Below, in pieces: positions 3,225 to 23,068 of a stretch of DNA of 64,000 nt. Numbering within the stretch: position 1 is the first letter of the stretch; each line of letters starts with the position of its first letter. The position numbers and the translations under genes were made by a program. Source of the DNA: an uncultured Bizionia sp. (GTDB lineage: Bacteria > Bacteroidota > Bacteroidia > Flavobacteriales > Flavobacteriaceae); assembly GCA_947496215.1 (NCBI GenBank), contig CANMCF010000023.1, positions 2,111 through 66,110 on the forward strand, given 5' to 3'. A model generated the notes under the pieces. The model was not told where the DNA came from. It made no database searches and saw only the letters and a program-made list of their open reading frames with translations.

Positions 3225-4037
3225 CTAATTTCTCAAAGCTTTGTTACTAATGGATTCCTTTAGTTCCAACAACTGGCTTTCCAATTCATGAAGCCTATCA
3301 TAGACATCCACAGGTTCTGGCATTTGTTTTGAGGCAAACATCGTGACGTACCACACTTCCATGATGTCCTCGATGTCTATGGTGTAGGTTGGATAGTTAC
3401 CATCCTTGTTGTCACTCTTTAGAATTAACTTTCCTCGTTTGTCTATTCTGTTTATTACACGTTTTAGGACAATCCCATCATTCTTGCTTACAATGACGTA
3501 GACACGTCCGTCTTTTACTTCATTCAAGTCCTCTACATATTTTCCAAAAACCAAATCACCATCGAAAAAAGTACGCACCATGGAGTTACCTTGTACCTCG
3601 AAGCACCTGAAGGTCCCATTGGTAAGTTGTGGCATATGGAAAGATGGCAATGTTTCTATGTATTCCGTGTCTCCATACCCATCCAAGTATCCCGCACGAG
3701 CTTTAATTGGAACATAAACGACGTTTTCTTCGTTGTCTTGGTTGACGGCTATAACTTGAGGTACTCCAGAATATGTTTGAATTTGAGGCACTTCATCTTT
3801 TAACATTATAGTACTTCTTCCAAAAAGGTAATCCGGATTTATATCGAATTCTTCAATTATTGCAGATAGGACATCATATCCAGGTTTTGTTTTTTTTCGA
3901 GAACCATCAGATTGAGGTCTTCCATTGACTATGCTATCTATGGTAGTTCCCGTAACTCCTATGCGTTTTGAAAAAGAAAAGTTGTTTAGTTGGAAGTGAT
4001 TAATAATCGCTTTTATTTTATCATCTATGGTCTCCAT
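3225..4037 (-). CDS. HTH + peptidase S24 (LexA / phage CI-like) transcriptional repressor
   Basis: N-terminal HTH-like region (FSFSKRIGVTGTTIDSIVNG). C-terminal S24 fold signature with the GNSM serine motif (VQGNSMVRTF) and a downstream Lys (IVLKRV). Divergent from the large gene at 4387. Confidence 0.8.
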   Translation of the reverse strand: METIDDKIKAIINHFQLNNFSFSKRIGVTGTTIDSIVNGRPQSDGSRKKTKPGYDVLSAIIEEFDINPDYLFGRSTIMLKDEVPQIQTYSGVPQVIAVNQDNEENVVYVPIKARAGYLDGYGDTEYIETLPSFHMPQLTNGTFRCFEVQGNSMVRTFFDGDLVFGKYVEDLNEVKDGRVYVIVSKNDGIVLKRVINRIDKRGKLILKSDNKDGNYPTYTIDIEDIMEVWYVTMFASKQMPEPVDVYDRLHELESQLLELKESISNKALRN

Positions 4038-4066
4038 AAGCTATTTCAAATTAAATTAAACTTTTT

Positions 4067-4110
4067 ACAGAATACACTGTAAAATGTTTGTTTTTATTTG
4101 TAAAATGTTT
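4067..4110 (+). promoter_or_regulatory. Bacteroidota-type promoter (-33 TTTG at 4077-4080, -7 TATATTTG at 4101-4108) overlapped by two direct TGTAAAATGTTT boxes (4069-4080, 4089-4100)
   Basis: The sequence ctgtaaaatgtttgtttttatttgtaaaatgttttatatttgta matches the TTTG/TAnnTTTG consensus with about 20 nt spacing. The same architecture recurs at 13090-13152 and 22420-22463. Confidence 0.6.
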
Positions 4111-4386
4111 TATATTTGTACTGCAATAATGTTGCTAATATACAAAATTATCTATAAATCAAACATTTGTATAAAAACAGAGCAACAATTTCTTGATTTT
4201 ACATAAAAGACGTCTTGAAAAATCAAAACGACGGATAACTATTCAAACATTTTTTTGAATAGGGTGGAGAGTTATGCCTTTCATTATTAAGGCTTTGTAT
4301 TGAGGTTTACCTGTTGGAAAAGCGAAATGAAGACAGTTCTTGATAACAAGAACCCAATAATGATTATAAATTTTAAAACAATTAGA
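4111..4386 (+). promoter_or_regulatory. Long conserved 5' leader of large gene 1, containing a 9-bp-stem hairpin (4239-4247/4254-4262) and a 9-codon uORF MPFIIKALY (4274-4303)
   Basis: About 235 nt (from 4158) are nearly identical to 13187-13418, with roughly 14 differences by eye. The coding sequence that follows is clearly more diverged than that. Confidence 0.5.
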
Positions 4387-7300
4387 ATGAGAAAAGAGAT
4401 TAAACAAAACCTATTTAGATTCGTAACCTTACGTAATCCACAATTAATAGACAAAAAGGAAAGCCATCCGGGATTTGTGTATCATCCAGACGATAATTAT
4501 GAAAGAAGTGTTTATTCTGAGGTGCTTTCAGAGACAGATGAAGCAAGTAAAATGGCCTTGTCAAAAGCAGTGTCAGATGAATTTGTTCCTTTGAAGGGAA
4601 GAAAAGGCGTAAAAGACTATAGGCAAACCATATATGACTTTTCATTATGGTTGATGCGTAACAAAAACCATTTGTCGTACAAAAGCATAAAATCAAATGC
4701 ACAAGGAGTAGATAATTTGACGACAGAAGCACTTTTGGTTATCTGGGACAATTTGATATATCAAACGATAAACAAGAAATCCGTCTATGTGAGGGAAGCT
4801 TTGATACAAGTCTTGATAGCAGATCAATTCTTTAAGGCGTTCAAAGATTTCTCTGCTGGTTTATCTGGAGATATCTTGTTCACGGAAGATCAAGAAAAGG
4901 AGTTTGTTCGTAGAGCCAATGCGAGTGTTGTAATTTCGAAGGCATTATTGGCTGCAACGACGATAAAACCAACAACAAAGGAAAAAAGGGTAAGCATATC
5001 TAAAATCAAAGAGCTTGAAAATGCTACTGATGTTGCGTTGGCAAAAGAGCGAGTACAAAGATACCAAACCTTGGTTGAAGAGTTGAAAAGTGTCGAGACC
5101 AAGTATAAAAATGAGAATCAAGTCAAGTATGAAAAAGCTTTGACTGACTATAACCAGACGATTGAAAACCTTTTGAAAAAGGTGGAACCGGTAATTGTAG
5201 AGGAAACCAATACCAAAGGAGAGGTTTCAAAAATAGAAACATATCCAAATTTGGATTTGCCAAAATTTGTTTACAACAAGGAAGCGGCAATCAACAAGGA
5301 ATATTTGACGAACAAGATTTCCAAAGACTCATTGGCTATTTTGGAGGAACAAGGATTGGATGTCCATAAGGATTTTTCAGAAGTGTTTGATGCAGTAAAA
5401 ACAAAAGTCAAAGATGAAAATGAAATTATTCTTGGCAAGGCGCCTAAACAAATAAAAACGCTCAAAGTAGGAGGGGCAAGCGTTACCGTCAATCCGAGTT
5501 TGGAATCCGAACCATATGACTATAACATTAGTCCATTGCATTCTATAAATCCAGGAGGGTTGAGAAATATCAACATGTTGATATTCAATTACGTTCAAGA
5601 TTCTCAAATAACGGATGTATCCTATAAGATAACTTTTAACAATGGTACGGAAAAAACAAGTACGGATTTCACCATATTCAATTCAGGAACAACGCAAATT
5701 TTAAGATTGTTTCCAAACTTGATTGCTTTTCCATTTGGGACGCTGTCATACACATTAGAAGGGGAGATCACATTGGAAGATCAAACAAAGCTTAGCTTTA
5801 GTAAGCTTGTAAAAATGAAAAGCAGACACAACTTTGGAATGTTTGATTTGCAAAATGATGATTCTGGTGACAACCCTGTGGATTCTCAGGTATTTGGAGT
5901 TACCAACCTGGGAATAGCCGACTTTAGACGTGTGGAACAAGAAGTATGCTGTTATGTGCCTGGGGAAGTGTCCCATATAGAAAACATCATGGCGCGAGAA
6001 TACAAAGAACGTGCAACGAGAAGTTTGAACAGCATAGAGACCACCAGTGAAGAAACCTCGGAGCGTGAAACGGAAAAACTTACAGATACCACAACAACGG
6101 AGCGTAATGAAATGCAAAGTGAAGTATCTTCTGTAATCAATGAAGACAAATCCAAGAACTATGGGGCAAACGCAAGTGTAAGTGGCAAGTTTGGTACCAC
6201 AAGTTTCAATGCAGGAGCACATTTCGATGCATCATCATCCAGTTCCACATCAAACTCCAACAGCCAAGCACAGACGTATGCACAGGAAGTCACGGAAAGA
6301 GCCATGGAGCGTATTGTGCAAAAGGTGAGCAGCAAGCGTACATCCCGTATATTGAAGGAGTTTGAAGAAAACAACAAGCATGGTTTCGATAACACGAAGG
6401 GAGACAAACATATTACAGGAGTATATCGTTGGGTGGATAAAATCTACAAGAATAAATTGATAAACTATGGTAAACGTCTAATGTATGAATTTGCTATTCC
6501 AGAACCTGCAAGATTCTTAAAAGATGCATTGATTAAAAAAGCAGACGATGGGCAATTGGATTCAGGTATCATTTTACCGGTAGAGCCAGTAAAACCAAGT
6601 ACGATAGGGTTGAATTCAGCGACCAACATAAATGAAAGCAGCTACCAAGGATTTGCATCCAAATATGCTGCCGAAGTTAGTGCTCCAGTAGATCAATACT
6701 TGAAAATTGGTCGCGCTTTCTCCAAAGACGATCAGAGTTATGATGCCAAAGGATATGCATTTAACGACATTGATGTTCCAGAAGGATATTATGCAACGTC
6801 GGGAACAGTTAATTGGGCTGTGATCCAGAAGAACAATTCGCATAAGTTCATGTCCATTGGGTTGGGAGATTCAAGACATTCTGTAATTGGAGGATCTGGA
6901 AGTACGTCTTTTTATAATTTTTCTGACATCTATAAAAAGAATATCCCATTCTCATTCAACACTTGGTACATTCACTCAGGGCATTTCAATGTTACGATAA
7001 ACTGTACAAGAAGCAATGAAGAGTACAAGCAATGGCAAAATGAAACATATACTGCCATCATGGATGCCTACAACGATCGTTTGCGTGAGTATAACGAAGC
7101 TATGGCCGCAAACAACATTGTTCCAGACAACGATGAGAAAGTTTCTTTCAATCCGGCCTTCAATAGAAGTCTTGAGAAAAAAGAGTTGAAACGCATTGCC
7201 ATCGAGTTGTTGATAGATCAAGACAGAGTATCCAAAAACGATTATGTGGACGATTCTTTGGTCAAGGTTAAAAACGATGAAGCCTTCCATGCACATGCGG

Positions 7301-8337
7301 CTACGGTGAAGTTCTTTGAGCAAGCCTTCGATTGGGACATCATGGCTTATGTCTTATATCCGTATTTCTATGCGAAGCAATCGGATTGGAAGACATTGTT
7401 CCAAGAAACAGACGTTGCAGATCCTATTTTCCAAGCCTTTTTACAGTCGGGTATGGCAAGAACGGTTGTTCCTGTGCGTCCAGGGTTCGAAGATGCGGTA
7501 AACTGGTACATGTCCACGGGCGAAATCTGGAATGGGGAAGGATTGATCACAGATCAAGACGATGATCTTTACGTGTCCATCTCAGAAGAAATGGAAACTG
7601 TGGAAGGAGTAGTGGAAGAGACTTGGGAAACACGTTTGCCTACGAGTTTGACGGTGATACAAGCTGGGTCCATAGGTTTGAATGTGGAAGGCCTACCATG
7701 CAATGTGGATTGTGATGACTTTGCGTTGTTCGATTCTGATGGAAACCCAGTATTGGATTCAAACGGAAACCCATTGACAAACAACCCTATAGAGCAAACC
7801 GATGTTTTGATTGGAGGAGCCTCTGGGGTAGGAGGAACTGGTACAGAGGAACTTAAAATGGTCGAGTTTACCTTTGTGGACAACACGGGAAGCAATTTTG
7901 CCAATATAGGGGAGTATGATGCAGAAGGAGCCTTTCCTTTGGTTTTCAAATGCATGGATCAAAAAATAGAGATTCAAAGAGAAGCCCAATGGCATGCCTC
8001 AAACAGCGTTGGTGTAATCTATCAGAAATTGGCGGAACAAGTGTCTTTGATTTCAGGGATTCAGGCAAATCAAGTCTTTAGTAAGAAAGGAGATCCATTG
8101 GGAATTAGATTCAAGGTAGAGATAGCCAAAATTCCAACATTCACATTTGAGAAATTCGTTGAAAAAGGAGCGTTCTCCGAACCAAACCACGATTTATTGA
8201 AGCTAATCATCAATGATACTGCTGTAAAGGTGATATCTCCTACCGTGTATTTGGATAGAATCTTCGATAAAGCAAATACAGGGCTCAAGGAAGCAGAATT
8301 AAACATCAATTTACCTATCGATAGGTTTTTGGTATGA
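4387..8337 (+). CDS. Giant protein 1 of an unrecognised family (about 1316 aa). No signal peptide. Mosaic of conserved and variable modules.
   Basis: Uninterrupted ORF 4300-8337; the track start is a TTG, and ATG 4387 (MRKEIKQNLFRFVTLRNPQLI) aligns with the paralog. Paralog of 13419-17081. I recognise no known domain signature. Confidence 0.85.
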   Translation: MRKEIKQNLFRFVTLRNPQLIDKKESHPGFVYHPDDNYERSVYSEVLSETDEASKMALSKAVSDEFVPLKGRKGVKDYRQTIYDFSLWLMRNKNHLSYKSIKSNAQGVDNLTTEALLVIWDNLIYQTINKKSVYVREALIQVLIADQFFKAFKDFSAGLSGDILFTEDQEKEFVRRANASVVISKALLAATTIKPTTKEKRVSISKIKELENATDVALAKERVQRYQTLVEELKSVETKYKNENQVKYEKALTDYNQTIENLLKKVEPVIVEETNTKGEVSKIETYPNLDLPKFVYNKEAAINKEYLTNKISKDSLAILEEQGLDVHKDFSEVFDAVKTKVKDENEIILGKAPKQIKTLKVGGASVTVNPSLESEPYDYNISPLHSINPGGLRNINMLIFNYVQDSQITDVSYKITFNNGTEKTSTDFTIFNSGTTQILRLFPNLIAFPFGTLSYTLEGEITLEDQTKLSFSKLVKMKSRHNFGMFDLQNDDSGDNPVDSQVFGVTNLGIADFRRVEQEVCCYVPGEVSHIENIMAREYKERATRSLNSIETTSEETSERETEKLTDTTTTERNEMQSEVSSVINEDKSKNYGANASVSGKFGTTSFNAGAHFDASSSSSTSNSNSQAQTYAQEVTERAMERIVQKVSSKRTSRILKEFEENNKHGFDNTKGDKHITGVYRWVDKIYKNKLINYGKRLMYEFAIPEPARFLKDALIKKADDGQLDSGIILPVEPVKPSTIGLNSATNINESSYQGFASKYAAEVSAPVDQYLKIGRAFSKDDQSYDAKGYAFNDIDVPEGYYATSGTVNWAVIQKNNSHKFMSIGLGDSRHSVIGGSGSTSFYNFSDIYKKNIPFSFNTWYIHSGHFNVTINCTRSNEEYKQWQNETYTAIMDAYNDRLREYNEAMAANNIVPDNDEKVSFNPAFNRSLEKKELKRIAIELLIDQDRVSKNDYVDDSLVKVKNDEAFHAHAATVKFFEQAFDWDIMAYVLYPYFYAKQSDWKTLFQETDVADPIFQAFLQSGMARTVVPVRPGFEDAVNWYMSTGEIWNGEGLITDQDDDLYVSISEEMETVEGVVEETWETRLPTSLTVIQAGSIGLNVEGLPCNVDCDDFALFDSDGNPVLDSNGNPLTNNPIEQTDVLIGGASGVGGTGTEELKMVEFTFVDNTGSNFANIGEYDAEGAFPLVFKCMDQKIEIQREAQWHASNSVGVIYQKLAEQVSLISGIQANQVFSKKGDPLGIRFKVEIAKIPTFTFEKFVEKGAFSEPNHDLLKLIINDTAVKVISPTVYLDRIFDKANTGLKEAELNINLPIDRFLV

Positions 8338-8718: not shown

Positions 8719-11088
8719 ATGAACAATACAATATACAATGAAACGATTAGAGATATGACACATGTGAGCAAGTTGGCGTCTCAAAAGTTTTATAATAGGA
8801 CGGCTCCGGAAATCTCACAAATCTACTTCCCACAATCTGACCAAAAAAAAATCAAGAACATCGTGGTTGAAACAGATGTGGATACAAGTGGCAAGCTGTT
8901 GGAATATGTGACGAAACGGGTGTATTTCTATGACAAGAACAACAACAACAAGCTGGATGATGATGAACAGTTGGCCTACAATGCTTACATATACACGTCA
9001 ACAGATGCCATAAAGTTGAAAGAGACATATGAAGTGGCCGAAGCAGGGGAAGACGATGTCTTGATTTTTGTAGAAGACAACCAAGGAGACGTAAGTTCCC
9101 AGTTTTGTAGAGCTAGAGTTGGAAAAAATGTTTTGAGCAATTTAAAGAATGCAGGCCATTTATACAACAACAGGAAACTTTTGGCAAGAATAAACGAACA
9201 TGCCCCTATCGATGAAGCCGTTTTAAATGAATTGTTGAAAAAGGGAAAGATAGAGAATACCACGTTGAAGGTGTTGGAATTCTTGTTTGCAGTTCCGGAT
9301 TATCTAGGCCCTTTCAGTCCAAATACTTTTGTAATGAAAGGCTTGGGAACTATATGTGAGGAGATTGCAAAGTTTATAAACAAGGCAAAAGTAGACGATT
9401 ACAGGTGGAACCCCCAAGCTAAAAAACGCAATGAGGATGGGACAGAAGATGAAACACATGAGTTTGCTCCTTTCCTGTTTCCCTTTGTGACAGAAGCATT
9501 GGATAGCATTGATGATTCCAAGGTAAATGGATATATGCAAAAATCCATTGCAGAATTGAAAAGTTTATACGCTTCTCAAGATCAAGCCATTCAAAATTAC
9601 GTTAAGAATGTGGATGTCGGCCGCTTGGGCAATGTGCCAATTTATTTTCCCTATGGAGGTTACGTGAACGTGGAAGTGGATTTGGTTCCGGATTCCATAG
9701 AACTGTTTTTGTTTAACAAGTACTTGCAAGTGAAAAAAGTGATAGATGCGGTATTCGAGAAATTGGAAGGGTTTGATTTCACGGACCTCATCAAAAAAGG
9801 GATTACCACGGCCAATGCATTCCTATGTGGTGTTTGGAATGGTTTGGTAGATGCCATTTCCGGTATTTTCGTGCTTTTGGAAATGGTGTTCAAAGCCGCC
9901 GCTGCAATGAATGATTTCAGGCAAAACTTCAGTACGGAATTTCCAATATTGTTGGAGTATATCGATAACTTTACGGAAGCATTGAGCAGTATAGATTTCA
10001 AAGAGCTCTATACACATCTAAAAACAAAGTTGTCAGATGCATCCATAGGAAGCATATCTTTGGAAACGATTGCTTATTTTAGTGGAGCGTTCATTGGGTT
10101 TGTAATAAGTTTGGTTATTGAAATAGTCGTAGGGATTCTATTTACAGGTGGTACGTTGAGTGTGGCAGCTGTAATAGAAAAGCTAGCGGCCATATTTTCA
10201 GGATTGCTCAGAGCAGGAGCCAAGGTTTTGAAAAAGACTTTTGATTTTTCAAAAAAATTGGTGGTCAACACCTTCAAGGGGTTCAAAAAGTTGTTGCAAG
10301 GAATGATAACTCTTTTGCGTAAGGGAACAGCTGGTTTCAAAGTAATGATAGATGACATATTCAAGGCATTCGGAATTTATGCCAAGGAAGCATTGAGTAA
10401 TGCAAATTCAGGATTGATACCGTTGTTGACAAAAGCAGAATTAAACCTCTACAAGAATTTGGCAAAAGCTTTTTTCAAGCCATTCAAAAAGTTGCTTTTA
10501 AGATATGCGGATAATGCAAGGGTGTTAAGGAGGTGGAGAAAGTTGAACCCTATGGATAGTCTATTAAAAGTTGATATAGACGAACTTTTAAGACTTAGGT
10601 CTTTAAATAAAAGAGGTTACAACAAAAATACTGCAACTATGAAAGCTCAAGTAGAGGTAAATGGAGAAGTTCTTGAGTTGGAATATAAAGCTTTGGCTGG
10701 TAATAAGACTAGTGGAGAAGGATTGCTTGGTAATGTGAATAAAGACTATATAGCTAAGCAATTAGGTATTAGTATAGAAGATTTAATGAAACATTTTGAT
10801 GATATTGCTGATGATGATTTGATAAGAAGGTTTCATGATAGTGAGCATAAGATCTTTAGTGCTTTCGATGATGATGTGTTGAAGCTTCAAACCCGTTATG
10901 GTAAAGAAAGTGTAAATGTTAAGAGTGTAAACTTTAAAACACTTTACGAACCATGTATATCTTGTAAACGTCAAATGATCATTCGTCAAGAAATGCACGA
11001 ATTTTCACTTAAAGTTCAGGCAATATTAATAAAAGGTAAGAATTACGCAAAAAATAATTCAGACTTACAAAGTTTAATGTTAAAATAA
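8719..11088 (+). CDS. Membrane-module protein with polymorphic C-terminal toxin domain (deaminase-like)
   Basis: Central hydrophobic helices (GVWNGLVDAISGIFVLLEMVFKAAAA; IAYFSGAFIGFVISLVIEIVVGILFTGG) are shared with 17278-19125. The C-terminus has FHDSEHKIF followed about 35 aa later by LYEPCISCKRQM, resembling the deaminase HxE...PCxxC layout. An immunity gene starts 6 nt downstream. Confidence 0.6.
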   Translation: MNNTIYNETIRDMTHVSKLASQKFYNRTAPEISQIYFPQSDQKKIKNIVVETDVDTSGKLLEYVTKRVYFYDKNNNNKLDDDEQLAYNAYIYTSTDAIKLKETYEVAEAGEDDVLIFVEDNQGDVSSQFCRARVGKNVLSNLKNAGHLYNNRKLLARINEHAPIDEAVLNELLKKGKIENTTLKVLEFLFAVPDYLGPFSPNTFVMKGLGTICEEIAKFINKAKVDDYRWNPQAKKRNEDGTEDETHEFAPFLFPFVTEALDSIDDSKVNGYMQKSIAELKSLYASQDQAIQNYVKNVDVGRLGNVPIYFPYGGYVNVEVDLVPDSIELFLFNKYLQVKKVIDAVFEKLEGFDFTDLIKKGITTANAFLCGVWNGLVDAISGIFVLLEMVFKAAAAMNDFRQNFSTEFPILLEYIDNFTEALSSIDFKELYTHLKTKLSDASIGSISLETIAYFSGAFIGFVISLVIEIVVGILFTGGTLSVAAVIEKLAAIFSGLLRAGAKVLKKTFDFSKKLVVNTFKGFKKLLQGMITLLRKGTAGFKVMIDDIFKAFGIYAKEALSNANSGLIPLLTKAELNLYKNLAKAFFKPFKKLLLRYADNARVLRRWRKLNPMDSLLKVDIDELLRLRSLNKRGYNKNTATMKAQVEVNGEVLELEYKALAGNKTSGEGLLGNVNKDYIAKQLGISIEDLMKHFDDIADDDLIRRFHDSEHKIFSAFDDDVLKLQTRYGKESVNVKSVNFKTLYEPCISCKRQMIIRQEMHEFSLKVQAILIKGKNYAKNNSDLQSLMLK

Positions 11089-11094
11089 TAAAAA

Positions 11095-11574
11095 ATGGAA
11101 ATACAATTTTTACAAAAATTAAAACAGAATCCTAAGATTGGTGTAAGAGAAATAAAAGGAGTTTTGGAATCAGAGATCTTTGAGGTAGAGAATAAACTTA
11201 ATATTAGTTTTCCAAAATCGTATAAAGAGTTTTTATTTTTAGCAGGAGAGTCTTGTGGAGCATTACAAATATTGGATACTACAGATTTGAAAACTATTTC
11301 TTCAGATTGGCATAAAGAAATACAAAAAGAAGAATTAGAATCTACAAGGACTGAATTTGATGGACCTTTTTGGTTGTTTGCTGAAAGCAATGGATGTGAG
11401 GTTTTTCATTTCTTTTATTTGGAAGATGGTATTGATGATCCAGTGGTATTTTCTGTAGACTATGATATATATGATGATAATAAACGTATAATTAAGACCA
11501 GTGATAAAAAATTCAGCGTATTTATTGAAAATAAGATAAAATCGGCTATAAGAATAGATAAACAAGGATATTAA
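11095..11574 (+). CDS. SMI1/KNR4 (SUKH-1) family immunity protein
   Basis: N-terminal pattern ESEIFEVENKLNISFPKSYKEFLFLAGESCG is typical of SMI1_KNR4. It lies immediately after the toxin gene. Confidence 0.8.
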   Translation: MEIQFLQKLKQNPKIGVREIKGVLESEIFEVENKLNISFPKSYKEFLFLAGESCGALQILDTTDLKTISSDWHKEIQKEELESTRTEFDGPFWLFAESNGCEVFHFFYLEDGIDDPVVFSVDYDIYDDNKRIIKTSDKKFSVFIENKIKSAIRIDKQGY

Positions 11575-11627
11575 TTAGTAAAGTATTCAAAACAAAAAGC
11601 CGAACTCTAGCCAGGTTTAAGAATAAA

Positions 11628-11876
11628 ATGATTATGAAAAAAACATTTATTTGTACTGGATATATTGAAACGAGTTTGGATAGTATCATCTCAATTTTAA
11701 AAACTTTTTTAGATGCATCCAATATTACAGATAGATATGCTGTAGATATAGAAAGAGAAGTTAAATATAGAGATGAAAAAATAGACATTTACTCATACAA
11801 GTACTCAGAAAAAGGGAGTTTATTTCAAGTAGAACTCAACGGAACGAAGAAGCTCAAAGCTTTATTGATACAATAA
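11628..11876 (+). CDS. Small hypothetical protein, possibly the 5' part of a frameshifted gene extending to 11986
   Basis: 82-aa ORF. A different frame stays open from about 11770 to 11986 and reads protein-like (EEAQSFIDTITEKLREDSIVHQFEWNEVDENEDQVGEEFEIRFPED) but has no start codon. Confidence 0.35.
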   Translation: MIMKKTFICTGYIETSLDSIISILKTFLDASNITDRYAVDIEREVKYRDEKIDIYSYKYSEKGSLFQVELNGTKKLKALLIQ

Positions 11877-12038
11877 CTGAAAAATTAAGAGAGGATTCAA
11901 TAGTTCATCAATTCGAATGGAATGAGGTTGATGAAAATGAGGATCAAGTAGGAGAAGAGTTTGAAATTCGATTTCCAGAAGATTAATTTCCAGGTTATTA
12001 AGTAATAGTTATGCTTTGCTAATAAAACATAAAGCCTA

Positions 12039-12075
12039 AAAAAGCTCTTACATCTTATAGTAAGAGCTTTTTTAA
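12039..12075 (+). terminator. Rho-independent terminator
   Basis: aaaaagctcttac / 8-nt loop / gtaagagcttttttt: a GC-containing 11-13 bp stem followed by a T-run. Confidence 0.65.
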
Positions 12076-12098
12076 ATATTTTGTAGACTTTTAAAAAG

Positions 12099-12404
12099 AT
12101 GACCTTAACAGAAGAAAAAGCAATACAATTAGGAAAGAAGATAATGTCTGACATTAATTTCGATTATGATAAAGAGGCGGAAATAACAGCTAAGTTTGTT
12201 GAAGAAAGTGATGAAGCTTTAGTTATTCCAAATAAATCTTGGTTGGTTAGTTTTCCATATGGATATGAGGATTTTGGAAGATATGTTAGAGGACATTTAA
12301 TAATTTTGGATGAAAATATGATTGGTGTAGATGTTTCAATAAGAAATGGTAGTATTAAATTGGAATATAATTCAGGTGAAGACAGGTATTATGTTAAAGA
12401 GTAA
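12099..12404 (+). CDS. Small hypothetical protein (candidate orphan immunity protein)
   Basis: 101-aa acidic ORF located between the two SUKH genes. No recognisable motif. Confidence 0.45.
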   Translation: MTLTEEKAIQLGKKIMSDINFDYDKEAEITAKFVEESDEALVIPNKSWLVSFPYGYEDFGRYVRGHLIILDENMIGVDVSIRNGSIKLEYNSGEDRYYVKE

Positions 12405-12493
12405 TTGTAATGTCAATTTATTTTTTCAGAGATAAAATCATATAGAATCTGTAATATGGTTAAGCGTTATCGTATGATGACTTGTTGGATACA

Positions 12494-12976
12494 ATGAATA
12501 TAGAATATTTAAATAGTTTAAAAGAAAACTCAGAAATTGGAAATAGAAAAATTAAAGGAGTTTCCGAATCAGAGATAACAAGTGTAGAACAAAAACTAAA
12601 TATTGCTTTCCCAAAATCATATAGGGAGTTTTTGTTTTTGGCTGGGGAATCTTGTGGGGCTTTGCCTTTATTGGAATCTGCAGATTTAAAGACATTGTCA
12701 TCAGATTTTTACAAGGAGGTTTTGGAAGAAGACATGAAAGACACCAACACTGTTATAGAGCGACCATTTTGGGTTTTTGCAGACAGTATTGGGGACCAAG
12801 GATTTTGGTTTTTCTATCTTGATGAAGAATCAGAAGATCCGCAAACCTATTATTATGCATATAAAGAAACTGAGCCTTATGAAGCGGTCATTGGTTCTCA
12901 TGAATTGATCTTTAGTGAGTTTATTGATGGAAGAATAGACTTTGGTAATCAAATAGAAAAAGAAGGTATTTGGTAA
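12494..12976 (+). CDS. SMI1/KNR4 (SUKH-1) family immunity protein, paralog of 11095-11574
   Basis: ESEITSVEQKLNIAFPKSYREFLFLAGESCGALPLL aligns with the first SUKH protein. The track start at 12482 is a TTG; ATG 12494 is more likely. Confidence 0.8.
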   Translation: MNIEYLNSLKENSEIGNRKIKGVSESEITSVEQKLNIAFPKSYREFLFLAGESCGALPLLESADLKTLSSDFYKEVLEEDMKDTNTVIERPFWVFADSIGDQGFWFFYLDEESEDPQTYYYAYKETEPYEAVIGSHELIFSEFIDGRIDFGNQIEKEGIW

Positions 12977-13000: not shown

Positions 13001-13040
13001 AAAAAAAGCCGAACTCTAATCTGAGTTCGGCTTTTTTATT
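13001..13040 (+). terminator. Rho-independent terminator closing locus 1
   Basis: Stem gccgaactc (13008-13016) pairs with gagttcggc (13023-13031). An A-run precedes it and a T-run follows. Confidence 0.75.
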
Positions 13041-13089
13041 TTGAATGTATATGTATATATCATATGTTTGATTGTGTTAAAACCATTAT

Positions 13090-13152
13090 AAACATTTTAC
13101 AAAACAAATAGTGTTGTAGTTGCTTTTGTTTGTAAAATGTTGTATATTTGTA
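13090..13152 (+). promoter_or_regulatory. Second copy of the promoter/operator. The upstream TGTAAAATGTT box is inverted here (13091-13101). A direct box at 13131-13142 abuts the -7 element TATATTTG at 13143-13150.
   Basis: aaacattttacaaaacaaa ... tttgtttgtaaaatgttgtatatttgta forms a 17-18 nt inverted repeat around an approximately 19-nt spacer. Confidence 0.55.
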
Positions 13153-13418
13153 ATGTAATAAGGCTGCTAATGTGCTGAAAAACTATAAATCAAACATTTG
13201 TATAAAAACAAAGCAGCAATTTCTTGATTTTACATAAAAGACGTCTTGAAAAATCAAAAACGACGGATAACTATTCAAACATTTTTTTGAATAGGGTGAA
13301 GAGTTATGCCTTTTATTATTAAGGCTTTGTATTAAGTTAAACCTGTTGGAAAAGCGAAACGATGACAGTTCTTAAAGACAAGAACCTAATAATAATTATA
13401 AATTTTAAAACAATTAGA
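13153..13418 (+). promoter_or_regulatory. Second copy of the conserved 5' leader, including the same hairpin and the uORF MPFIIKALY (13306-13335)
   Basis: Near-identity to 4111-4386. Within the uORF the only differences are ttc to ttt (synonymous) and tga to taa (stop to stop). Confidence 0.5.
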
Positions 13419-16400
13419 ATGAGCAAAGAGATTAAACAAAACCTATTTAGGTTTGTAACCCTACGTAATCCACAATTAATAGAAGACAAAAAAGAACATC
13501 CAGGTTTTGTATATCATCCAAGTGAAGATTATGACGGGAGTGCATACAGAACCATGCTTACAGAAACAGATGTTGCAAGTAAAAAAGCATTGTCTAAAGT
13601 CGTTTCGGATGAATTCACCCCTTTAAAAGGTCGTAAAGGTGTAAAGGACTATTCACAAGCAATGTATGACTTTTCGTTGTGGTTGATGCGCAATAAGAAC
13701 CATTTGTCTTATCAAAGCATAAAATCCAATGCAGAAGGAGTTGGCAATTTGACAACAGAGGCACTTTTGGTTGTTTGGGACAATTTAATATATCAAACAA
13801 TAAACAAAGAATCCGTTTATGCGCGAGAAGCTTTGATACAAGTTTTAATTGCAAATCAATTTTTAAAGGCATTTAAAGGTCTTTCAATAGGAATGGAAGA
13901 ATTTACAGATGACACTGAAAAGGAGTTTGTGCGAAGAGCAAATGCAAGCGTTGTAATTTCGAAATCCTTATTTGTTGAGAATGGAGAGAAAAGTCAATCT
14001 AAAAAAAGATTGACAGAATCTCAAGAAAAAGCAATGCTTAAAGTGATTGAAACAGAAGAAGCCAAGGAGAATTTGGCAGCTTATAAAAAATTGAATGCTG
14101 AGCTTAAAGGAATAGAGATAGGTTACAACAAGGAATCTCAAAGATCATACGATAATACTTTAAAAACGCACAAAGCATCTATAGCTAAAATATTGGCGTC
14201 AACAGAACCTGTAGTAGTTAGTGAGACAGACCCAAGAACAGGAGTTGTTAAAAAAGTTAAAACATATCCAAACTTGGAACTGCCATCGTTTAACTTTGAA
14301 AACACAAAAGCAATAGATTCCAAATACTTGAAAGAGCGATTGTCTCCAGAATCTATGCAGGTTTTCGATGCAGTAGAGTTAGGGGTTTACGATGATTTTT
14401 CTGAAGTGAACAACGCTATTAATAATCAAATTCAGCTTGTAAATCAAACGATTCTAAATAACGATTCTTCAACATCAGGAACGGTATTGGTTGGGGGAAC
14501 CACAACTACCGTAAGTGAAAACATGGCAACTTTAGACCCTTATTGCTTTTTTGTTTCTAGGTTGAGTTCAATAGGAAACCCCGGATTGACCATGTTTTTA
14601 GGAACTGGGTACTTGGGAGCTTTAGCATCGAATGCGTCTTACACTTTGGAAAACTTGGATTCTAACATAAAGTATGAAGGAACAGTAATACAAACAAATT
14701 CTAGTTTCAACAATACAAGTACGCGTTTGTTTTTTCCAATAGCTCATCCTATAGACAATAATGGGAGTTATCGTTTTTCGGGAAAATTCACATTGGATAA
14801 TGGCGTGACATTAAGTTTCGATGTTACAAACGACGTATCTAAACGAGGTGTGAGATTTAATGGTTGTTGTGATGCCGTAAAAGGAGATGATACTACAGAT
14901 CCAGCAGGAGGAGAGGTTAAGCCACAAGTGTTTGGAGTCACCAATTTAGGTATTGCGGATTTCAGACGTGTAGAACAAGAGGTGTGCTGCTATGTGCCTG
15001 GAGAAGTGTCACACATAGAAAATATCATGGCACGTGAATACAAAGAACGTGCAACAAGAAGTTTGAACAGTGTAGAAACTACCAGTGAGGAAACGACAGA
15101 ACATGAAACAGAAAACTTAACAGATACAACTACAACCGAGCGCAATGAAATGCAGAGTGAAGTTGCTTCCGTTATTAATGAGGATAAATCTCAAAACTAT
15201 GGAGCAAATGCAAGTGTGAGCTATAGTCCTACAAAAGCATTGTCCATAAATGCAGGAGGTTATGCGGATTTTTCATCATCAAGCTCTACGTCAAACTCCA
15301 ATAGTCAAGCTCAAACCTATGCACAAGAAGTGACTGAGAGAGCAATGGAGCGTATTGTTCAAAAAGTAAGCAATAAACGTACTTCTCGTATTTTAAGAGA
15401 GTTCGAAGAGAATAACAAGCATGGTTTTGACAATACCAAAGGCGATAAGCATATTACAGGTGTGTACCGTTGGGTTGATAAGATTTACAAGAATAAATTA
15501 ATCAATTATGGTAAGCGTTTAATGTATGAATTTGCGATACCGGAACCAGCTAAATTTTTTAAGGAGGCATTATGGAAAAAGTTCAAAAACGATGAATTGG
15601 GGGCTGAGGTTGTATTGCCTATAAAACCAGCTCATCCAAGAGACATTGGTGTGACTTCTCCAACGAGTATTATAGAGTCGACTTACCAATTAAAGGCGGC
15701 TGAATACAATGCAGAGGTTATTGCAGCTCCAGAAAAATACGATTATGTCGGTACGTCGTTTACTAAATCGCAACAAGGTGGAGACGGCGGAGATAACACC
15801 AATAAATCTGCCAAAGATGTCATTAAAATCCCAAAAGGATATAAAAGCATTGCAGCAAAAACAACAGGAAGACAAAAAAATGGTGCAGTTTTAATTTCTG
15901 TTGCCGGTGAAGACTTTCCTGTTAATAGTTCGTACTATTCTACAATAACTCCTCATTTGGACGAATTACCTGTTTCTGTTTCTTTTGAATGGAACTGGGT
16001 GACGAATGTAAATATAGATGTAAAGTGTGAGAGAACGGATGGAGCCTACAAACAATGGCAAAATGAGACGTTCAATGCTATCATGGAAGCTTATAATGAC
16101 CGTTTGCGAGAGTATAACGAATCGATTATTGCAAATGAGATCAACCAGAATGCCAGTGGTGAAAAATTAAAATTCAATCCATTGTTCAATAGAAGTATAG
16201 AAAAGAAAGAGTTAAAACGTATTGCGATTGAATTGATCATTGATCAAGACAGGATTTCCAAAAACAATTATAATGCAATCAATGATGCTACAGGTTTGTC
16301 AAAAGTGATGAAAACACAAGGTTTGCAAGATCATGCAGCTACCGTTAAATTCTTTGAGCAAGCATTCGATTGGGATATCATGTCATACATCTTTTATCCA

Positions 16401-17081
16401 TATTTTTATGCTAATGAAGAGAATTGGAAAGACTTGTTTCAGTCTCAAGATGCAGCAGATCCGTTATTTCAAGGTTTCTTGCAATCCGGTATGGCTAGAA
16501 CAATTGTTCCTGTTCGCCCAGGGTTTGAAGACGCAATGAACTGGTATATGTCTACTGGAGAAATCTGGAATGGTCAAGGATTGATCACGGATCAAGATGA
16601 TGACCTTTATGTGTCCATTGCAGAAGAAATGCAAACCGTGGAAGGAGAAGTGGAAGATACGTGGGAAACACGTTTGCCAACCAATTTAACTGTAATACAA
16701 GCAGGTTCAATAGGTTTAAATGTGGAAGGGTTGCCATGTAACATTGATTGCGACGATTTTGCGTTGTTTGATTCTGATGGCAAGCCAATTTTGGATGACA
16801 ATGGAAAGCAGGTGACTGAAAACCCGATAGAGCAAACCAATACAATGGTTGGGGGCGAGCTTGATCCAACCGAGTTGGAAAAGGTACAAAGCCGCTTGAT
16901 CGAAAATGTAGACATAGACAATGGTTACCTTAAACTGACCACAGAAGGAAGCAACAGGCAGACAGTTGCACAAATTTCCGTGGAAGCAATCAAACGAGCC
17001 ATAGATGAGTCGGTAGCTACTACGACGACCAGAACGTCTACCCTTGAAAAAGGCTCTGAAACAACTACGGCTTCAAGATAA
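13419..17081 (+). CDS. Giant protein 2 of the same unrecognised family (about 1220 aa)
   Basis: Uninterrupted ORF 13362-17081. ATG 13419 (MSKEIKQNLFRFVTLRNPQLI) aligns with protein 1. The N-terminal, core and C-proximal modules are shared, while two internal regions and the tail differ. Confidence 0.85.
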   Translation: MSKEIKQNLFRFVTLRNPQLIEDKKEHPGFVYHPSEDYDGSAYRTMLTETDVASKKALSKVVSDEFTPLKGRKGVKDYSQAMYDFSLWLMRNKNHLSYQSIKSNAEGVGNLTTEALLVVWDNLIYQTINKESVYAREALIQVLIANQFLKAFKGLSIGMEEFTDDTEKEFVRRANASVVISKSLFVENGEKSQSKKRLTESQEKAMLKVIETEEAKENLAAYKKLNAELKGIEIGYNKESQRSYDNTLKTHKASIAKILASTEPVVVSETDPRTGVVKKVKTYPNLELPSFNFENTKAIDSKYLKERLSPESMQVFDAVELGVYDDFSEVNNAINNQIQLVNQTILNNDSSTSGTVLVGGTTTTVSENMATLDPYCFFVSRLSSIGNPGLTMFLGTGYLGALASNASYTLENLDSNIKYEGTVIQTNSSFNNTSTRLFFPIAHPIDNNGSYRFSGKFTLDNGVTLSFDVTNDVSKRGVRFNGCCDAVKGDDTTDPAGGEVKPQVFGVTNLGIADFRRVEQEVCCYVPGEVSHIENIMAREYKERATRSLNSVETTSEETTEHETENLTDTTTTERNEMQSEVASVINEDKSQNYGANASVSYSPTKALSINAGGYADFSSSSSTSNSNSQAQTYAQEVTERAMERIVQKVSNKRTSRILREFEENNKHGFDNTKGDKHITGVYRWVDKIYKNKLINYGKRLMYEFAIPEPAKFFKEALWKKFKNDELGAEVVLPIKPAHPRDIGVTSPTSIIESTYQLKAAEYNAEVIAAPEKYDYVGTSFTKSQQGGDGGDNTNKSAKDVIKIPKGYKSIAAKTTGRQKNGAVLISVAGEDFPVNSSYYSTITPHLDELPVSVSFEWNWVTNVNIDVKCERTDGAYKQWQNETFNAIMEAYNDRLREYNESIIANEINQNASGEKLKFNPLFNRSIEKKELKRIAIELIIDQDRISKNNYNAINDATGLSKVMKTQGLQDHAATVKFFEQAFDWDIMSYIFYPYFYANEENWKDLFQSQDAADPLFQGFLQSGMARTIVPVRPGFEDAMNWYMSTGEIWNGQGLITDQDDDLYVSIAEEMQTVEGEVEDTWETRLPTNLTVIQAGSIGLNVEGLPCNIDCDDFALFDSDGKPILDDNGKQVTENPIEQTNTMVGGELDPTELEKVQSRLIENVDIDNGYLKLTTEGSNRQTVAQISVEAIKRAIDESVATTTTRTSTLEKGSETTTASR

Positions 17082-17277
17082 CGTTTGGCACATTTCCTAA
17101 TGCTGGGAAAATAAATGTTTAATCCATCTTACTTGTCATTTTAGGTAACCTCAAACTTAATCAGCAGGTTCCAAAATAAGATTCCTCATTCTTTTTTTCA
17201 AAGGAGAATGAGGAAACAGGTAAGGTGTGTTTAAATGTTGCCAGACAAATGTTTAACAATTGAAAAAAGAATAAATA

Positions 17278-19125
17278 ATGAGTAATATAAATGAGAACAA
17301 TCCATTGGAGGGAATCGATTTCCCGGATGGTGTTTCAAATGCCTCTAACCTCTTTGCTGCAAATGCACCGATTTCGAATTCCATATTTCAAACTTGTACT
17401 ACAGATAATTTTTTGAATTACTTCTTTCAAGGAGCAGAGCGTAAGGATGTCGTGGAAAAAATGGGAGCTTTTGGAGGCAAGATAGTAGAAGAAACTTATG
17501 TTGGAGGAGGAATCGAAAAAGTATATAGGACAAACCGATATGTCAAAAAAGATGGAATTAGGCAAGAAGCGGGAACAGTGGTTTTGATTATTGGTACAGA
17601 TGGAGCAGAAATACTGAAGACCCATAATGGCTTGGTGCCAAAAAAAGGGGAACAAATTATCCTTCTGGAAAAAAATGACAATGATTTCTCTGGAGCCATA
17701 ATGCGTTTTAAACAGGATACAAGTATAAACATCAACAAATCCGCAGTTTCATTGACCAGTTTCATCAATAAACGCTATGAGATCACATTGGATCAATTTA
17801 AAGACATTGTCAATAGGGTAGACAACACCTCTGCTCTGGAAAGTTTGGTGATCTCGATACTTGACAATACCAAAACAGTTAGAACCGTGGCAACGGTAGG
17901 TTTGGCATTGGCAGGTAAAATGATAGACTCAGCCATAAAGGGGTTTGATGAATTTGTGGATGGTTCGCTAAAGATCGATCCTAGTTTTTGGAACCCGGAC
18001 CATAAGGATTTCAAACAGAAGGTAAATGTAACATCAGAACAAATAAAGGAGTTAACAGCCTCTTTGGATGTTATTGGTGGAAAAGTGGATGGATTGAGTT
18101 TTAAAAGCGTGGTTGCTGCCGGAGGAGCTGCATCTGTGGCAGCAGGACCGTTTGCACTTGCATTTCTGGCTCCCGGAGCAGTGGCATACAAATTATATTC
18201 CGAAGAAATAGAATTGGTGTTCGATAAGATGAAGGCTCAAATAAAAAGCGCCCTAAAGACTCTTAAGGAATTTTTGAACAATACGTTGGAAAGCCTGATA
18301 AAAGGCATAAATACGACAATAAATGTCGTATTGGCTTTTATTTCCGGAGTTTGGTCAGGTTTGGTGGACTTTGTTGCAGACATCATAAGGCTCTTCCTGT
18401 TCTTGGTGAAATTGGCTGTGGCCGGTGCAGGAAAAGTAAATGAGGTGATTGGTGTTAAAGAAGGGGATTCCAAAGCATTTGTAAAGAACTTTGGGTTGTA
18501 CTATAACCTCATCTTGGAAAACATAGATAATACGTTGCAAGGTTTGGGAGCAGTAAACTGGTTGGAATTCTTCAAGGAATCCTTTTTAAAGTTCGAACTG
18601 TTGAAAATACGTATCCTAGCCAAGATCTTCGATAAGGCCGGGAAGACTCTGGACGGATTGAATTATGCTGAGTGGGCCTATTACATAGCCTATGCCATAC
18701 TATTGATTGCAGATATCATATTGTCCTTCTTCTTTCCTGGTCTGTTGGCAACCAAAATAGCCAAATTAGGCAAGGCAGGAAAGGTGTTGGCGAAAATCAT
18801 TGTAGCTGTGCAGGATGCTATGGCACTTGTATTTAAAATAGGGTTTAAGACAGTTGCCTTTGGTGTGAAAAGCATTATAGGTGTTTGGTCCAGCATTGTA
18901 GGTATTTTAAGAAAGGGAACTAAAAAACTCTTGGAGTTTTTGGATGTAGTGTTCGCTAATCTGGCAAAGGTGTTCGATGAGGTTATTACTGGGGTGTCTA
19001 AAGCGGCAGAAAAGGCTTACAAGTCTTTGTTTAATGTAACTGAACGAAGTTTGATAGATAAGTTGGGCTTAAAGGTAAGTAAATACGAGGATGACATATT
19101 AACACTTTGTCCGATAGGCAAATAA
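17278..19125 (+). CDS. Membrane-module protein, paralog of the central part of 8719-11088
   Basis: LAFISGVWSGLVDFVADIIRLFLFLVKLAVAGAG and GILRKGTKKLLEFLDVVF align with GVWNGLVDAISGIFVLLEMVF and LLRKGTAGFKVMIDDIF of the 789-aa protein. The N- and C-termini are unrelated. Confidence 0.7.
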   Translation: MSNINENNPLEGIDFPDGVSNASNLFAANAPISNSIFQTCTTDNFLNYFFQGAERKDVVEKMGAFGGKIVEETYVGGGIEKVYRTNRYVKKDGIRQEAGTVVLIIGTDGAEILKTHNGLVPKKGEQIILLEKNDNDFSGAIMRFKQDTSININKSAVSLTSFINKRYEITLDQFKDIVNRVDNTSALESLVISILDNTKTVRTVATVGLALAGKMIDSAIKGFDEFVDGSLKIDPSFWNPDHKDFKQKVNVTSEQIKELTASLDVIGGKVDGLSFKSVVAAGGAASVAAGPFALAFLAPGAVAYKLYSEEIELVFDKMKAQIKSALKTLKEFLNNTLESLIKGINTTINVVLAFISGVWSGLVDFVADIIRLFLFLVKLAVAGAGKVNEVIGVKEGDSKAFVKNFGLYYNLILENIDNTLQGLGAVNWLEFFKESFLKFELLKIRILAKIFDKAGKTLDGLNYAEWAYYIAYAILLIADIILSFFFPGLLATKIAKLGKAGKVLAKIIVAVQDAMALVFKIGFKTVAFGVKSIIGVWSSIVGILRKGTKKLLEFLDVVFANLAKVFDEVITGVSKAAEKAYKSLFNVTERSLIDKLGLKVSKYEDDILTLCPIGK

Positions 19126-19138
19126 AACCGATACATGT

Positions 19139-19960: not shown

Positions 19961-19970
19961 AAAAACAAAA

Positions 19971-20327
19971 ATGAATTATAAGTTTTATAAAGAAGAAATA
20001 GACGGAATTATTACTTTAGGCGTAATGCCTGAAAAAAAAGAGTATAATATATTGTTTAGGTTTGGTAACTATGGTTGGACATCATTAAAGGCGCAGGAAA
20101 TAATAGATGGAGTTCAAGAAAGCAAAGAAAAACCTAAAGGAGAAGAATATGTTTGGGCAAACGAGGATGTTACATTGTATTCTAATGAAAATGGAATATT
20201 GTTGATTGATGACATCTCTCAAAGAGCAGGAGAAAAGAATCCTGAAAAATTGAATTTTGGCATTGGTACTGACGAGTTTATTGTATTTATGCAAGAGTTT
20301 AAGTTGTTCATTGAGGAGAATAGTTAA
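19971..20327 (+). CDS. Small cytoplasmic protein, candidate cognate immunity protein for the EndoU-like toxin
   Basis: 118-aa ORF (MNYKFYKEEIDG) starting 10 nt after the toxin stop. The track start at 19932 overlaps the toxin gene and is less likely. Confidence 0.5.
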   Translation: MNYKFYKEEIDGIITLGVMPEKKEYNILFRFGNYGWTSLKAQEIIDGVQESKEKPKGEEYVWANEDVTLYSNENGILLIDDISQRAGEKNPEKLNFGIGTDEFIVFMQEFKLFIEENS

Positions 20328-23061: not shown

Positions 23062-23068
23062 ATGAGAT

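Follow-up and report, generated by a model that had tools for sequence, protein, structure and literature searches.

The window analysed here is a stretch of 64,000 nucleotides from an uncultured Bizionia sp., a marine flavobacterium (contig CANMCF010000023.1), and the gene under study is an open reading frame (ORF) at 8719-11088 that encodes a protein of 789 amino acids (aa), the carrier-toxin. Based on its motifs and profile matches, the C-terminal domain of this protein, called the tip below, can be classed as a divergent subfamily (about 13 sequences found) of the BURPS668_1122/PF14424 clade of deaminases. We regard it as probable, with some reserve, that the carrier-toxin, the giant protein encoded upstream and the SUKH immunity protein encoded downstream belong to a bacteriocin-like polymorphic toxin system of two components, which is controlled by a repressor and probably released by lysis, and whose family in the Bacteroidota is undescribed. 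The tip is a new member of a known clade, and both its pairing with SUKH and its behaviour as a cassette are those of textbook cases. New is the delivery module, whose mechanism we infer; the chance that it stands for a delivery system of its own is moderate. The carrier-toxin gene and its immunity gene are composed as follows.

8719-11088, plus strand: ATG ORF of 789 aa, the carrier-toxin
8719-10362, plus strand: conserved carrier region, residues 1-548, ending in LLRKGTAGFKVMIDDIF
9817-9909 and 10060-10209, plus strand: transmembrane (TM)-like helices of the carrier by hydropathy, residues ~367-397 and ~448-497
10363-10566, plus strand: linker or pre-toxin helical region, residues ~549-616, lying beyond the breakpoint described below and moving with the toxin cassette
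10567-11088, plus strand: predicted C-terminal deaminase domain of the BURPS668_1122/PF14424 clade, residues ~617-789
10828-10851, plus strand: deaminase motif R704-K711
10951-10965, plus strand: P745-C749 motif
11095-11574, plus strand: putative cognate SUKH (SMI1_KNR4) immunity gene, starting 6 nt past the stop of 8719-11088

The original prediction had tentatively called the C-terminus of this ORF a deaminase from three strings, all of which are present in the 789-aa protein, MKAQVEVNGEVLELEYKALAG as residues 641-661, FHDSEHKIF as residues 705-713 and LYEPCISCKRQM as residues 742-753, with a spacing of 37 residues from E709 to C746. The call was upheld by PF14424 matches, by the RxxDxExK signature, by an insert between beta2 and alpha2 and by structural matches. 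The sole Pfam match of the tip was PF14424 (Toxin-deaminase, BURPS668_1122 family), which scored 19.4 bits with the whole 789-aa protein and 22.9 bits with the domain alone (E=1e-4, profile positions 21-132 of 146). Relatives that are 52-57% identical to the window tip exceed the gathering score of this family, i.e., P0002 with 31.1 bits and the C-terminus of L026 with 33.2 bits, and their matches cover profile positions 3-144 of 146. PF14424 was matched by all eight members of the tip family that were tested, and no other family was matched consistently. Comparison of the tip with the PDB sequences gave no match, and the NCBIfam scan of the proteins of the island gave no meaningful match.

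Seven tip homologues were obtained from a word-indexed search. Another six, P0011 and the five Chryseobacterium proteins, escaped this search and were added via locus analysis. The motif comparison covered 13 tips, namely the eight rows of alignment A1 and the five Chryseobacterium C-termini. The alignment of tip homologues showed R-F-x-D-S-E-H-K-I-F and E-P-C-x-S-C-K-x-Q as invariant motifs, and R704, F705, D707, S708, E709, H710, I712 and F713 as well as E744, P745, C746, S748 and C749 are shared by 13 of the 13 tips, while K711 is replaced by N and K750 by Q in two Chryseobacterium tips. The earlier proposal of HxxE (HDSE) as the first zinc motif was ruled out: position 706 is H, Q, R, Y or K among the homologues, D707 and E709 are invariant, and the first metal motif is D707-x-E709. 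The RxxDxExK motif in helix 2, with DxE replacing H/CxE, is the defining variant of the BURPS668_1122 clade (Iyer et al. 2011, PMC3239186), so the doubt over the first zinc motif is settled. The window tip carries this clade motif as R704-F-H-D707-S-E709-H-K711. At helix 3, where the clade has CxxCxS, the window has P745-C-I-S-C749-K-R, in which CxxC is invariant and the trailing Ser is absent (K/R instead); every other feature given for the clade by Iyer et al. was found in the window tip. D707, C746 and C749 are predicted to be positioned as metal ligands and E709 as the catalytic base.

The AlphaFold2 (AF2) model of the tip (predicted local distance difference test score, pLDDT, 76; predicted template modelling score, pTM, 0.72) showed the order alpha-beta-beta-insert-alpha(DxE)-beta-alpha(PCxxC)-beta-beta, with a C-terminal beta-hairpin. 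In this model MKAQVEV/EVLELEY lies in beta1-beta2, DSEHK and PCxxC stand at the N-termini of consecutive helices, and an insert of ~45 residues (660-703) separates beta2 from the DxE helix. Almost all of the top 50 Foldseek matches of the tip in PDB were deaminase-fold (or JAB) proteins, and the top matches included APOBEC3F/G/H, SsdA (9c63), DddB (9k3e) and PPR-DYW. Single-stranded DNA (ssDNA) cytidine deamination has been reported for members of the PF14424 clade (bioRxiv 10.1101/2023.05.21.541555), and we infer cytidine-deaminase activity and its substrate for the window tip. The deaminase toxins DddA (SCP1.201 clade) and SsdA, which are delivered by a type VI secretion system (T6SS), are alike in having a C-terminal deaminase-fold toxin and a dedicated immunity protein, but they differ from the window toxin in their deaminase clade, and the window gene has no PAAR, Rhs or VgrG context.

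SUKH is among the immunity proteins listed for the BURPS668_1122 clade (PMC3239186). The product of 11095-11574 matched SMI1_KNR4/SUKH-1 (PF09346) with 36.4 bits against a gathering score of 25.4, and it also exceeds the gathering scores for SUKH_5 and SUKH_6 (PF14568 and PF14567, both above 27). The same tip is followed by a SUKH homologue in eight other places, comprising five Chryseobacterium loci, the L039 locus and two orphan cassettes, and this pairing persists despite very different N-termini. These SUKH homologues are 36-58% identical to that of the window. The immunity pairing of SUKH with the toxin, which had been proposed earlier, is borne out by its conservation in these places, and 11095-11574 can be taken as the cognate immunity gene of the deaminase tip. 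A 166-aa Endonuclease V gene is also present inside the island at 21872-22372 on the plus strand (Pfam PF04493, E=2.7e-12). Its counterpart in L039 (8403-8903) stands directly after the deaminase toxin and SUKH genes and before the CHAP-holin pair, and the gene was not found in Olleya loci with other toxin tips. Endonuclease V cleaves at deaminated bases. The gene may provide auxiliary self-protection, or it may be a hint of inosine made by the toxin.

The exchange of tips could be followed at a fixed junction. Two near-identical relatives are 96-100% identical to the 789-aa protein up to residue ~546 and then fall to background, and the collapse comes after the junction LLRKGTAGFK.MIDD.F (LLRKGT..MIDD.F). 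The nucleotide match to a Bizionia sp. metagenome-assembled genome (MAG; L003), whose copy of the left part of the island is 96.5% identical, stops at 10355 and resumes at 11602. Taken together, the protein and nucleotide breakpoints indicate that the deaminase and SUKH cassette (10356-11601) replaced a different tip, and that the immunity gene of the old tip was left behind as a truncated orphan at 11628-11876. The region behind the cassette contains the following features.

11628-12976, plus strand: orphan immunity array
11628-11876, plus strand: array member, truncated homologue of the immunity gene that belonged to the toxin variant now displaced
12099-12404, plus strand: array member
12482-12976, plus strand: array member, second SUKH gene (SUKH2)
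13002-13037, plus strand: intrinsic-terminator-like hairpin closing operon 1, a 15-bp stem followed by a T-run

Homologues of the array members sit directly downstream of carrier-toxins elsewhere (L003, L013/L036 and L018), and in L032 an additional homologue of SUKH2 is located ~1.6 kb downstream of the toxin. The linker region was found at the N-terminus of the orphan cassettes P0002-P0006, and orphan deaminase and SUKH cassettes lie downstream of full-length carriers bearing other tips. Between Flavobacteriaceae and Chryseobacterium the identity is 40-52% for the tip, 36-58% for SUKH and 29-32% for the carrier. That the C-terminus is polymorphic, as had been claimed from the first reading, was supported by the recombination breakpoint and by the range of C-terminal domains described below. 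As judged from these comparisons, the toxin and immunity pair behaves as a mobile cassette, and these are the defining behaviours of polymorphic toxin systems. Swapped tips, cognate immunity and orphan cassettes, by which such systems are recognised in the sense of Zhang et al. 2012, were all found, and a recognisable trafficking or secretion domain of the known polymorphic-toxin routes was not found in the carrier. The CdiA-CT/CdiI and Rhs-CT/RhsI systems are alike in their constant N-terminal part, their fixed junction (here LLRKGT..MIDD.F), an immunity gene next to the toxin and orphans. They differ in that the window system has no haemagglutinin or YD repeat and no two-partner secretion or T6SS context, and its constant part is ~550 aa with TM-like helices. 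A copy of AAAAAGCCGAACTCTA at ~11596-11611, just past the SUKH gene, corresponds to the left arm of the terminator hairpin at 13002-13037; this copy is probably a scar of cassette insertion.

The carrier region belongs to a family that is also represented in a second cassette of the window, in which the toxin is encoded by a separate gene.

13419-20327, plus strand: second cassette, split type, composed of giant 2, carrier, toxin and putative immunity gene
13419-17081, plus strand: giant 2, 59% identical to giant 1
17278-19125, plus strand: short-form carrier of 615 aa
19139-19960, plus strand: separate EndoU toxin of 273 aa (EndoU_bacteria 43.2 bits)
19932-20327, plus strand: putative immunity gene, a 131-aa ORF with a homologue in Olleya

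BLASTP showed homology between the 789-aa and the 615-aa protein (E=6e-13, 23% identity), and both fall into one profile family, of which residues ~360-550 are the best conserved part. The original prediction had limited their likeness to a central core of ~250 aa; the homology is real, but it spans residues 36-548 of the former and 48-559 of the latter. The word-indexed search with carrier residues 1-600 gave 26 clusters, and an exhaustive profile search gave 438 carrier representatives, 181 of them at E<=1e-30. No member of the carrier family is named, and no Pfam domain was found in the carrier region of any. The long forms (~700-850 aa) are fused to varied C-terminal domains, including Tox-MPTase4 (the commonest), EndoU, ADP-ribosyltransferases, C39 peptidase, WHH and colicin-type DNases, and deaminase tips of four clades (PF14424, YwqJ, XOO_2897 and MafB19), and in all 11 Pfam toxin families were found on this one carrier family. 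Behind the short forms (~580-620 aa) the toxin is encoded by an ORF of its own, e.g., the WHH/colicin DNase with SUKH in L028, and this arrangement was found in seven loci besides the window. In Kyte-Doolittle windows of 19 residues, the carrier showed TM-like segments at ~367-397 and ~448-497 with a peak of 2.74, and no signal-like N-terminal segment. Residues 1-600 matched no Pfam, NCBIfam or PHROG secretion or trafficking domain and gave only weak tape-measure PHROG matches. By these searches and its hydropathy, the carrier represents an unnamed Bacteroidota family and has two or three hydrophobic helices. A pattern scan of IMG/VR for the carrier gave no match, and a hidden Markov model search of giant-containing viral contigs found the carrier in L036 and L037. 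The carrier of the window is not among the secretion routes listed for the BURPS668_1122 clade by Iyer et al. 2011, and PMC3482391 gave no description of it under the terms searched.

Hydrophobic helices that precede a cytoplasm-acting toxin in prePAAR/Tse6-type T6SS effectors are a plausible device for crossing the inner membrane of the target. The window carrier is alike in its hydrophobic helices, but neither a PAAR or prePAAR motif nor an Eag chaperone nor T6SS genes could be detected.

The carrier gene is closely accompanied by the gene of the giant protein, and the genes upstream of the carrier-toxin are the following.

4387-8337, plus strand: giant protein 1, 1316 aa when read from the ATG at 4387, identical to P0034
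8334-8681, plus strand: 115-aa minimal-nucleotidyltransferase (MNT)-like ORF, overlapping the stop of giant 1 (ATGA); its Pfam Polbeta match is weak (E=0.005)

A giant homologue stands directly upstream of the carrier gene in 24 of the 30 genomic loci, which come from Flavobacteriaceae, Weeksellaceae, Chitinophagaceae, Crocinitomicaceae and one Planctomycetota MAG, and a giant gene precedes both cassettes of the window. This tight gene linkage supports a functional partnership of the giant with the carrier, as had been suspected from the first reading, in which the membrane module could be a translocation device or a docking element for the giant. The giants of the family are ~1150-1350 aa in length and form at least 118 clusters, including that of Tenacibaculum maritimum, and all are unnamed or annotated as hypothetical or uncharacterized. 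Searches of the giant against Pfam, NCBIfam, PHROG and PADLOC gave weak sub-threshold matches and nothing above noise, and a profile of 32 giant sequences found nothing below E=0.1 among the PDB sequences. No hydrophobic or signal-like segment was found in either giant of the window in Kyte-Doolittle windows. The AF2 model suggests helical N-terminal domains, a beta-sandwich where the two window giants differ most and very long beta-hairpins around invariant motifs. When this model was searched with Foldseek, the PDB matches covered only a beta-sandwich of ~100 residues, and the BFVD matches to tail proteins had template modelling (TM) scores of ~0.08.

In the database entries the first residue of the giants corresponds to 4387 (1316 aa) and to 13419 (1220 aa), in agreement with their conserved N-terminus M(R/S)KEIKQNLFRF; the mechanical ORFs begin further upstream within a conserved leader, with TTG at 4300 and ATG at 13362. 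The 115-aa ORF behind giant 1 has a GS...DxD signature and was seen only in the window and L003, and the alternative toxin tip of L003 is itself weakly nucleotidyltransferase-like. The Chryseobacterium loci add around the giant a Peptidase_M15_4 gene and a patatin-like phospholipase gene, both located upstream, and one to three paralogous ORFs of ~500-600 aa (coordinates of the extra genes: L026 1612-6004; L019 8325-9806; L036 13600-15189). A distant giant homologue, 31% identical over residues 500-1132, is encoded at 8798-12268 of an IMG/VR contig (L034), where it adjoins a holin, an amidase-like ORF and siphophage-type tail genes; the genes of this contig look Firmicutes-like. The giant family may extend beyond Bacteroidota as prophage cargo.

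Both toxin operons share a promoter element with a lysis cassette, and a CI/LexA-like repressor gene is adjacent to the first of them.

3225-4037, minus strand: gene of a repressor with XRE helix-turn-helix and Peptidase_S24 (CI/LexA-like) domains, divergent from giant/toxin operon 1
4044-4118, plus strand: operator/promoter element 1, with inverted and direct TGTAAAATGTT copies at 4059-4069 (minus, 1 mismatch), 4078-4088 and 4099-4109, then TATATTTG at 4111-4118
13085-13150, plus strand: operator/promoter element 2, with TGTAAAATGTT at 13091 (minus) and 13131 (plus) and TATATTTG at 13143-13150
22421-22462, plus strand: operator/promoter element 3, upstream of the CHAP-holin cassette
22421-24228, plus strand: lysis cassette including element 3
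22567-23061, plus strand: CHAP peptidoglycan hydrolase (Pfam CHAP 34 bits; PHROG tail lysozyme E=4e-30)
23069-23503, plus strand: phage holin (Phage_holin_4_1 43.8 bits; PHROG holin)
23605-24228, plus strand: spanin-like candidate of 207 aa with an N-terminal hydrophobic or lipobox-like segment

The repressor gene product matched Peptidase_S24 (39.5 bits) and HTH_19 in Pfam and a transcriptional repressor in PHROG (E=1.7e-22), and the gene is also found in the same position in the Bizionia MAG L003. Five exact copies of the 11-mer TGTAAAATGTT are present in the 64 kb against 0.24 expected, a number reached in no shuffle. All copies lie in three regions, i.e., the intergenic region between the repressor and giant 1, upstream of giant 2 and upstream of the CHAP-holin cassette. 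Each set is followed by TATATTTGTA as a promoter box; we take this TATATTTGTA or TATATTTG box to match the Bacteroidetes -7 box with the consensus TAnnTTTG. The arrangement of element 1 is conserved in L003, L039 and Olleya, and L039 has the same two-site architecture upstream of its giant gene as well as upstream of its CHAP gene; in Olleya this architecture precedes the CHAP gene. The L039 toxin is 67% identical to that of the window, and its compact island is composed of giant, deaminase toxin, SUKH, Endonuclease V, CHAP, holin and a 201-aa protein, and nothing else. The 207-aa ORF at 23605-24228 gave no family match; an ORF of this type always stands behind the CHAP/holin pair, and the trio was found in Olleya, L039 and the prophage contig L033. 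In IMG/VR contigs, too, giant genes adjoin the lysis modules of prophages, and the Peptidase_M15_4 gene linked to the system in the Chryseobacterium loci belongs to the same wider lysis context.

Each giant is preceded by a leader of ~270 nt that reaches from the shared promoter to the start codon (4119-4386 and 13151-13418). The leader is 94% identical between the two cassettes, although identity of the giant proteins is 59%; a recognisable counterpart is conserved in L039 (1496-1767), and that of L003 is 5402-5672. The RNA fold of this leader has a z-score of -2.4, with compensatory changes in three pairs of the first hairpin, and an Rfam search of the conserved leader gave no real match. 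The leader may be a structured 5' untranslated region.

Based on these genes we propose the following model. Relief of the adjacent S24 (CI/LexA-like) repressor would co-induce the giant/toxin operons and, in this lineage, the CHAP-holin cassette, and a subpopulation of the producers would lyse and so set the complex free, in the manner of colicins and pyocins. The giant would be indispensable as a partner, be it in binding the receptor, in passing the outer envelope or in assembly, the hydrophobic module would enter the inner membrane of the target and carry the C-terminal domain across, and the tip would deaminate cytosine in the nucleic acid of the rival cell (ssDNA cytidine in the case of other PF14424 members). 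Because neither the giant nor the carrier has a signal-like N-terminus, co-induction with release by lysis is the simplest model. Colicins and S-type pyocins are alike in nuclease/deaminase-type tips with immunity, in an S24-type repressor and in a lysis function that shares the promoter/operator. They differ in that each is one three-domain protein, whereas the window has two large components, the giant and the carrier, and in that the putative lysis function of the window is a phage holin and CHAP endolysin and not a lysis lipoprotein; regulation and release of the window system are predicted. The narrower claim that the giant and carrier make up a new phage-derived two-component bacteriocin, in which the giant would bind the receptor and pass the outer envelope by way of a variable beta-sandwich and long beta-hairpins and the carrier would bring interchangeable tips across the inner membrane of the target, with lysis release independent of T6SS, the type IX secretion system (T9SS) and contact systems, is tentative, and we would sooner doubt it than adopt it.

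Several points weigh against the model of a lysis-released deaminase bacteriocin. The 22.9 bits of the window tip are below the PF14424 gathering score of 29.6, the Foldseek statistics of the tip are weak (best E=9e-3, TM score ~0.36), and the CxxCxS signature is reduced to CxxC. The AF2 model of the giant is poor (pLDDT 65.7, pTM 0.34) and found no functional fold match. The lysis cassette was found by our screen only in Bizionia/Olleya-type loci, L033 and L034, and none was seen within 10 kb in loci of Chitinophagaceae, of Crocinitomicaceae and of others; release by lysis may be a trait of certain lineages, or the cassette may be a coincidental prophage context. It is adjacency alone that suggests binding of the repressor to the TGTAAAATGTT repeat. 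The solubility of a protein with TM helices, the crossing of the diderm outer membrane and the contact with the giant are all left unexplained by the model.

Among the rival explanations, the one that survives best, and which we still hold to be unlikely, is that the carrier-toxin is cargo of a secretion machine encoded elsewhere (e.g., T6SS-iii), with the giant as adaptor or chaperone and the lysis cassette as prophage debris. Deaminase, nuclease and ADP-ribosyltransferase tips with SUKH are typical T6SS payloads, and T6SS is among the routes of the clade (PMC3239186). The TM-like helices without a signal peptide look as if of the prePAAR/Tse6 type, and many loci have no nearby lysis gene. 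However, neither the window ORFs scanned with Pfam and NCBIfam nor the conserved neighbours of the 30 loci gave any VgrG, Hcp, PAAR or Tss match, and a phylogenetically conserved operator ties the toxin operons to the lysis cassette, including in the L039 island with its minimal gene content.

It is rather less probable that the carrier is a tape-measure-like payload of a phage-tail-like particle, of which the giant would be a tail or baseplate/fibre part and by whose tail the toxin would be injected. Both carriers match several tape-measure PHROGs (best E=6.5e-6 and 7.5e-6; range to 2e-3), and the same PHROGs are matched by a genuine tape-measure protein near the system in L036, but direct comparison of the carrier with this neighbouring protein was marginal (E ~3e-3, in several registers) and possibly compositional. 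The likeness lies in the hydrophobic Gly/Ala-rich helical region of the carrier, and the length and architecture of tape measure proteins differ. Homology of the carrier to tape-measure proteins, a candidate raised by these matches, was not established. Sheath, tube and tape-measure genes are located ~5 kb from the giant on the other strand in L036 and L037, and tail-fibre genes precede the giant in L033. Most of what the giant model matched in BFVD is annotated as tail or host-specificity protein, but with the TM scores given above these matches reduce to one beta-sandwich. Scanning of the island ORFs and of ten large ORFs elsewhere in the window with Pfam and PHROG gave no tail family besides the tail-lysozyme match of CHAP and the weak tape-measure matches of the carriers, and among the genes called for L039 and for the Olleya locus there is no tail gene.

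A prophage-borne anti-phage module of the abortive-infection or toxin-antitoxin type, in which the giant senses infection, the tip kills the host and SUKH is the antitoxin, is improbable. The system does occupy a 'moron' position beside lysis genes in prophage contigs, the giant and carrier have no signal peptide, and an MNT-like ORF lies between them; yet the PADLOC matches were only noise (E >= 0.004, 12.8-15.3 bits), and orphan immunity arrays, orphan tips, swapping at a fixed junction and interbacterial toxin families are hallmarks of competition that a suicide module would not need. Least probable of all is that the tip is an inactive or repurposed deaminase-fold domain (e.g., a nucleic-acid binder or other hydrolase), as its sub-threshold Pfam score, its weak fold-search statistics, an Asp metal ligand instead of His/Cys and the inactive BURPS668_1122 members of Perkinsus (PMC3239186) might suggest, since D707, E709, C746 and C749 are invariant in 13 homologues from different families, DxE is normal for the clade (PMC3239186), and the constant pairing of the tip with an immunity gene implies toxicity.

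The preferred reading, a lysis-released two-component toxin, would add to a field in which, to our knowledge, few antagonism systems beyond T6SS-iii and T9SS-secreted enzymes have been characterised for marine and fish-pathogenic Flavobacteriia (Tenacibaculum, Olleya, Dokdonia, Bizionia and Chryseobacterium). Our literature searches found no description of the carrier/giant system, be it of the carrier family, of the near-obligate giant that goes with it, of the fused and split forms or of the operator that the system has in common with a phage-type lysis cassette. With hundreds of representatives, interchangeable tips and a conserved giant, the carrier family is a concrete and testable candidate for a new delivery route. 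The DxE subfamily of the tip has hardly been sampled, and its clade is one for which activity usable in DNA base editing has already been shown, so the tip widens the sequence space from which editors can be drawn. The recurrent Endonuclease V gene beside the deaminase tip hints at a link between repair and immunity.

A 412-aa protein, whose N-terminus resembles a signal peptide, is encoded at 20417-21655 on the minus strand, between the second cassette and the Endonuclease V gene; it gave no Pfam, PHROG or PADLOC match. The G+C content of the window is 37.7%, and the scanned flanks hold genes that are usual for a flavobacterial chromosome, among them rnpA and those of M1 and S8 peptidases, of TonB-dependent receptors, of a T9SS-tailed protease and of glutamate synthase.

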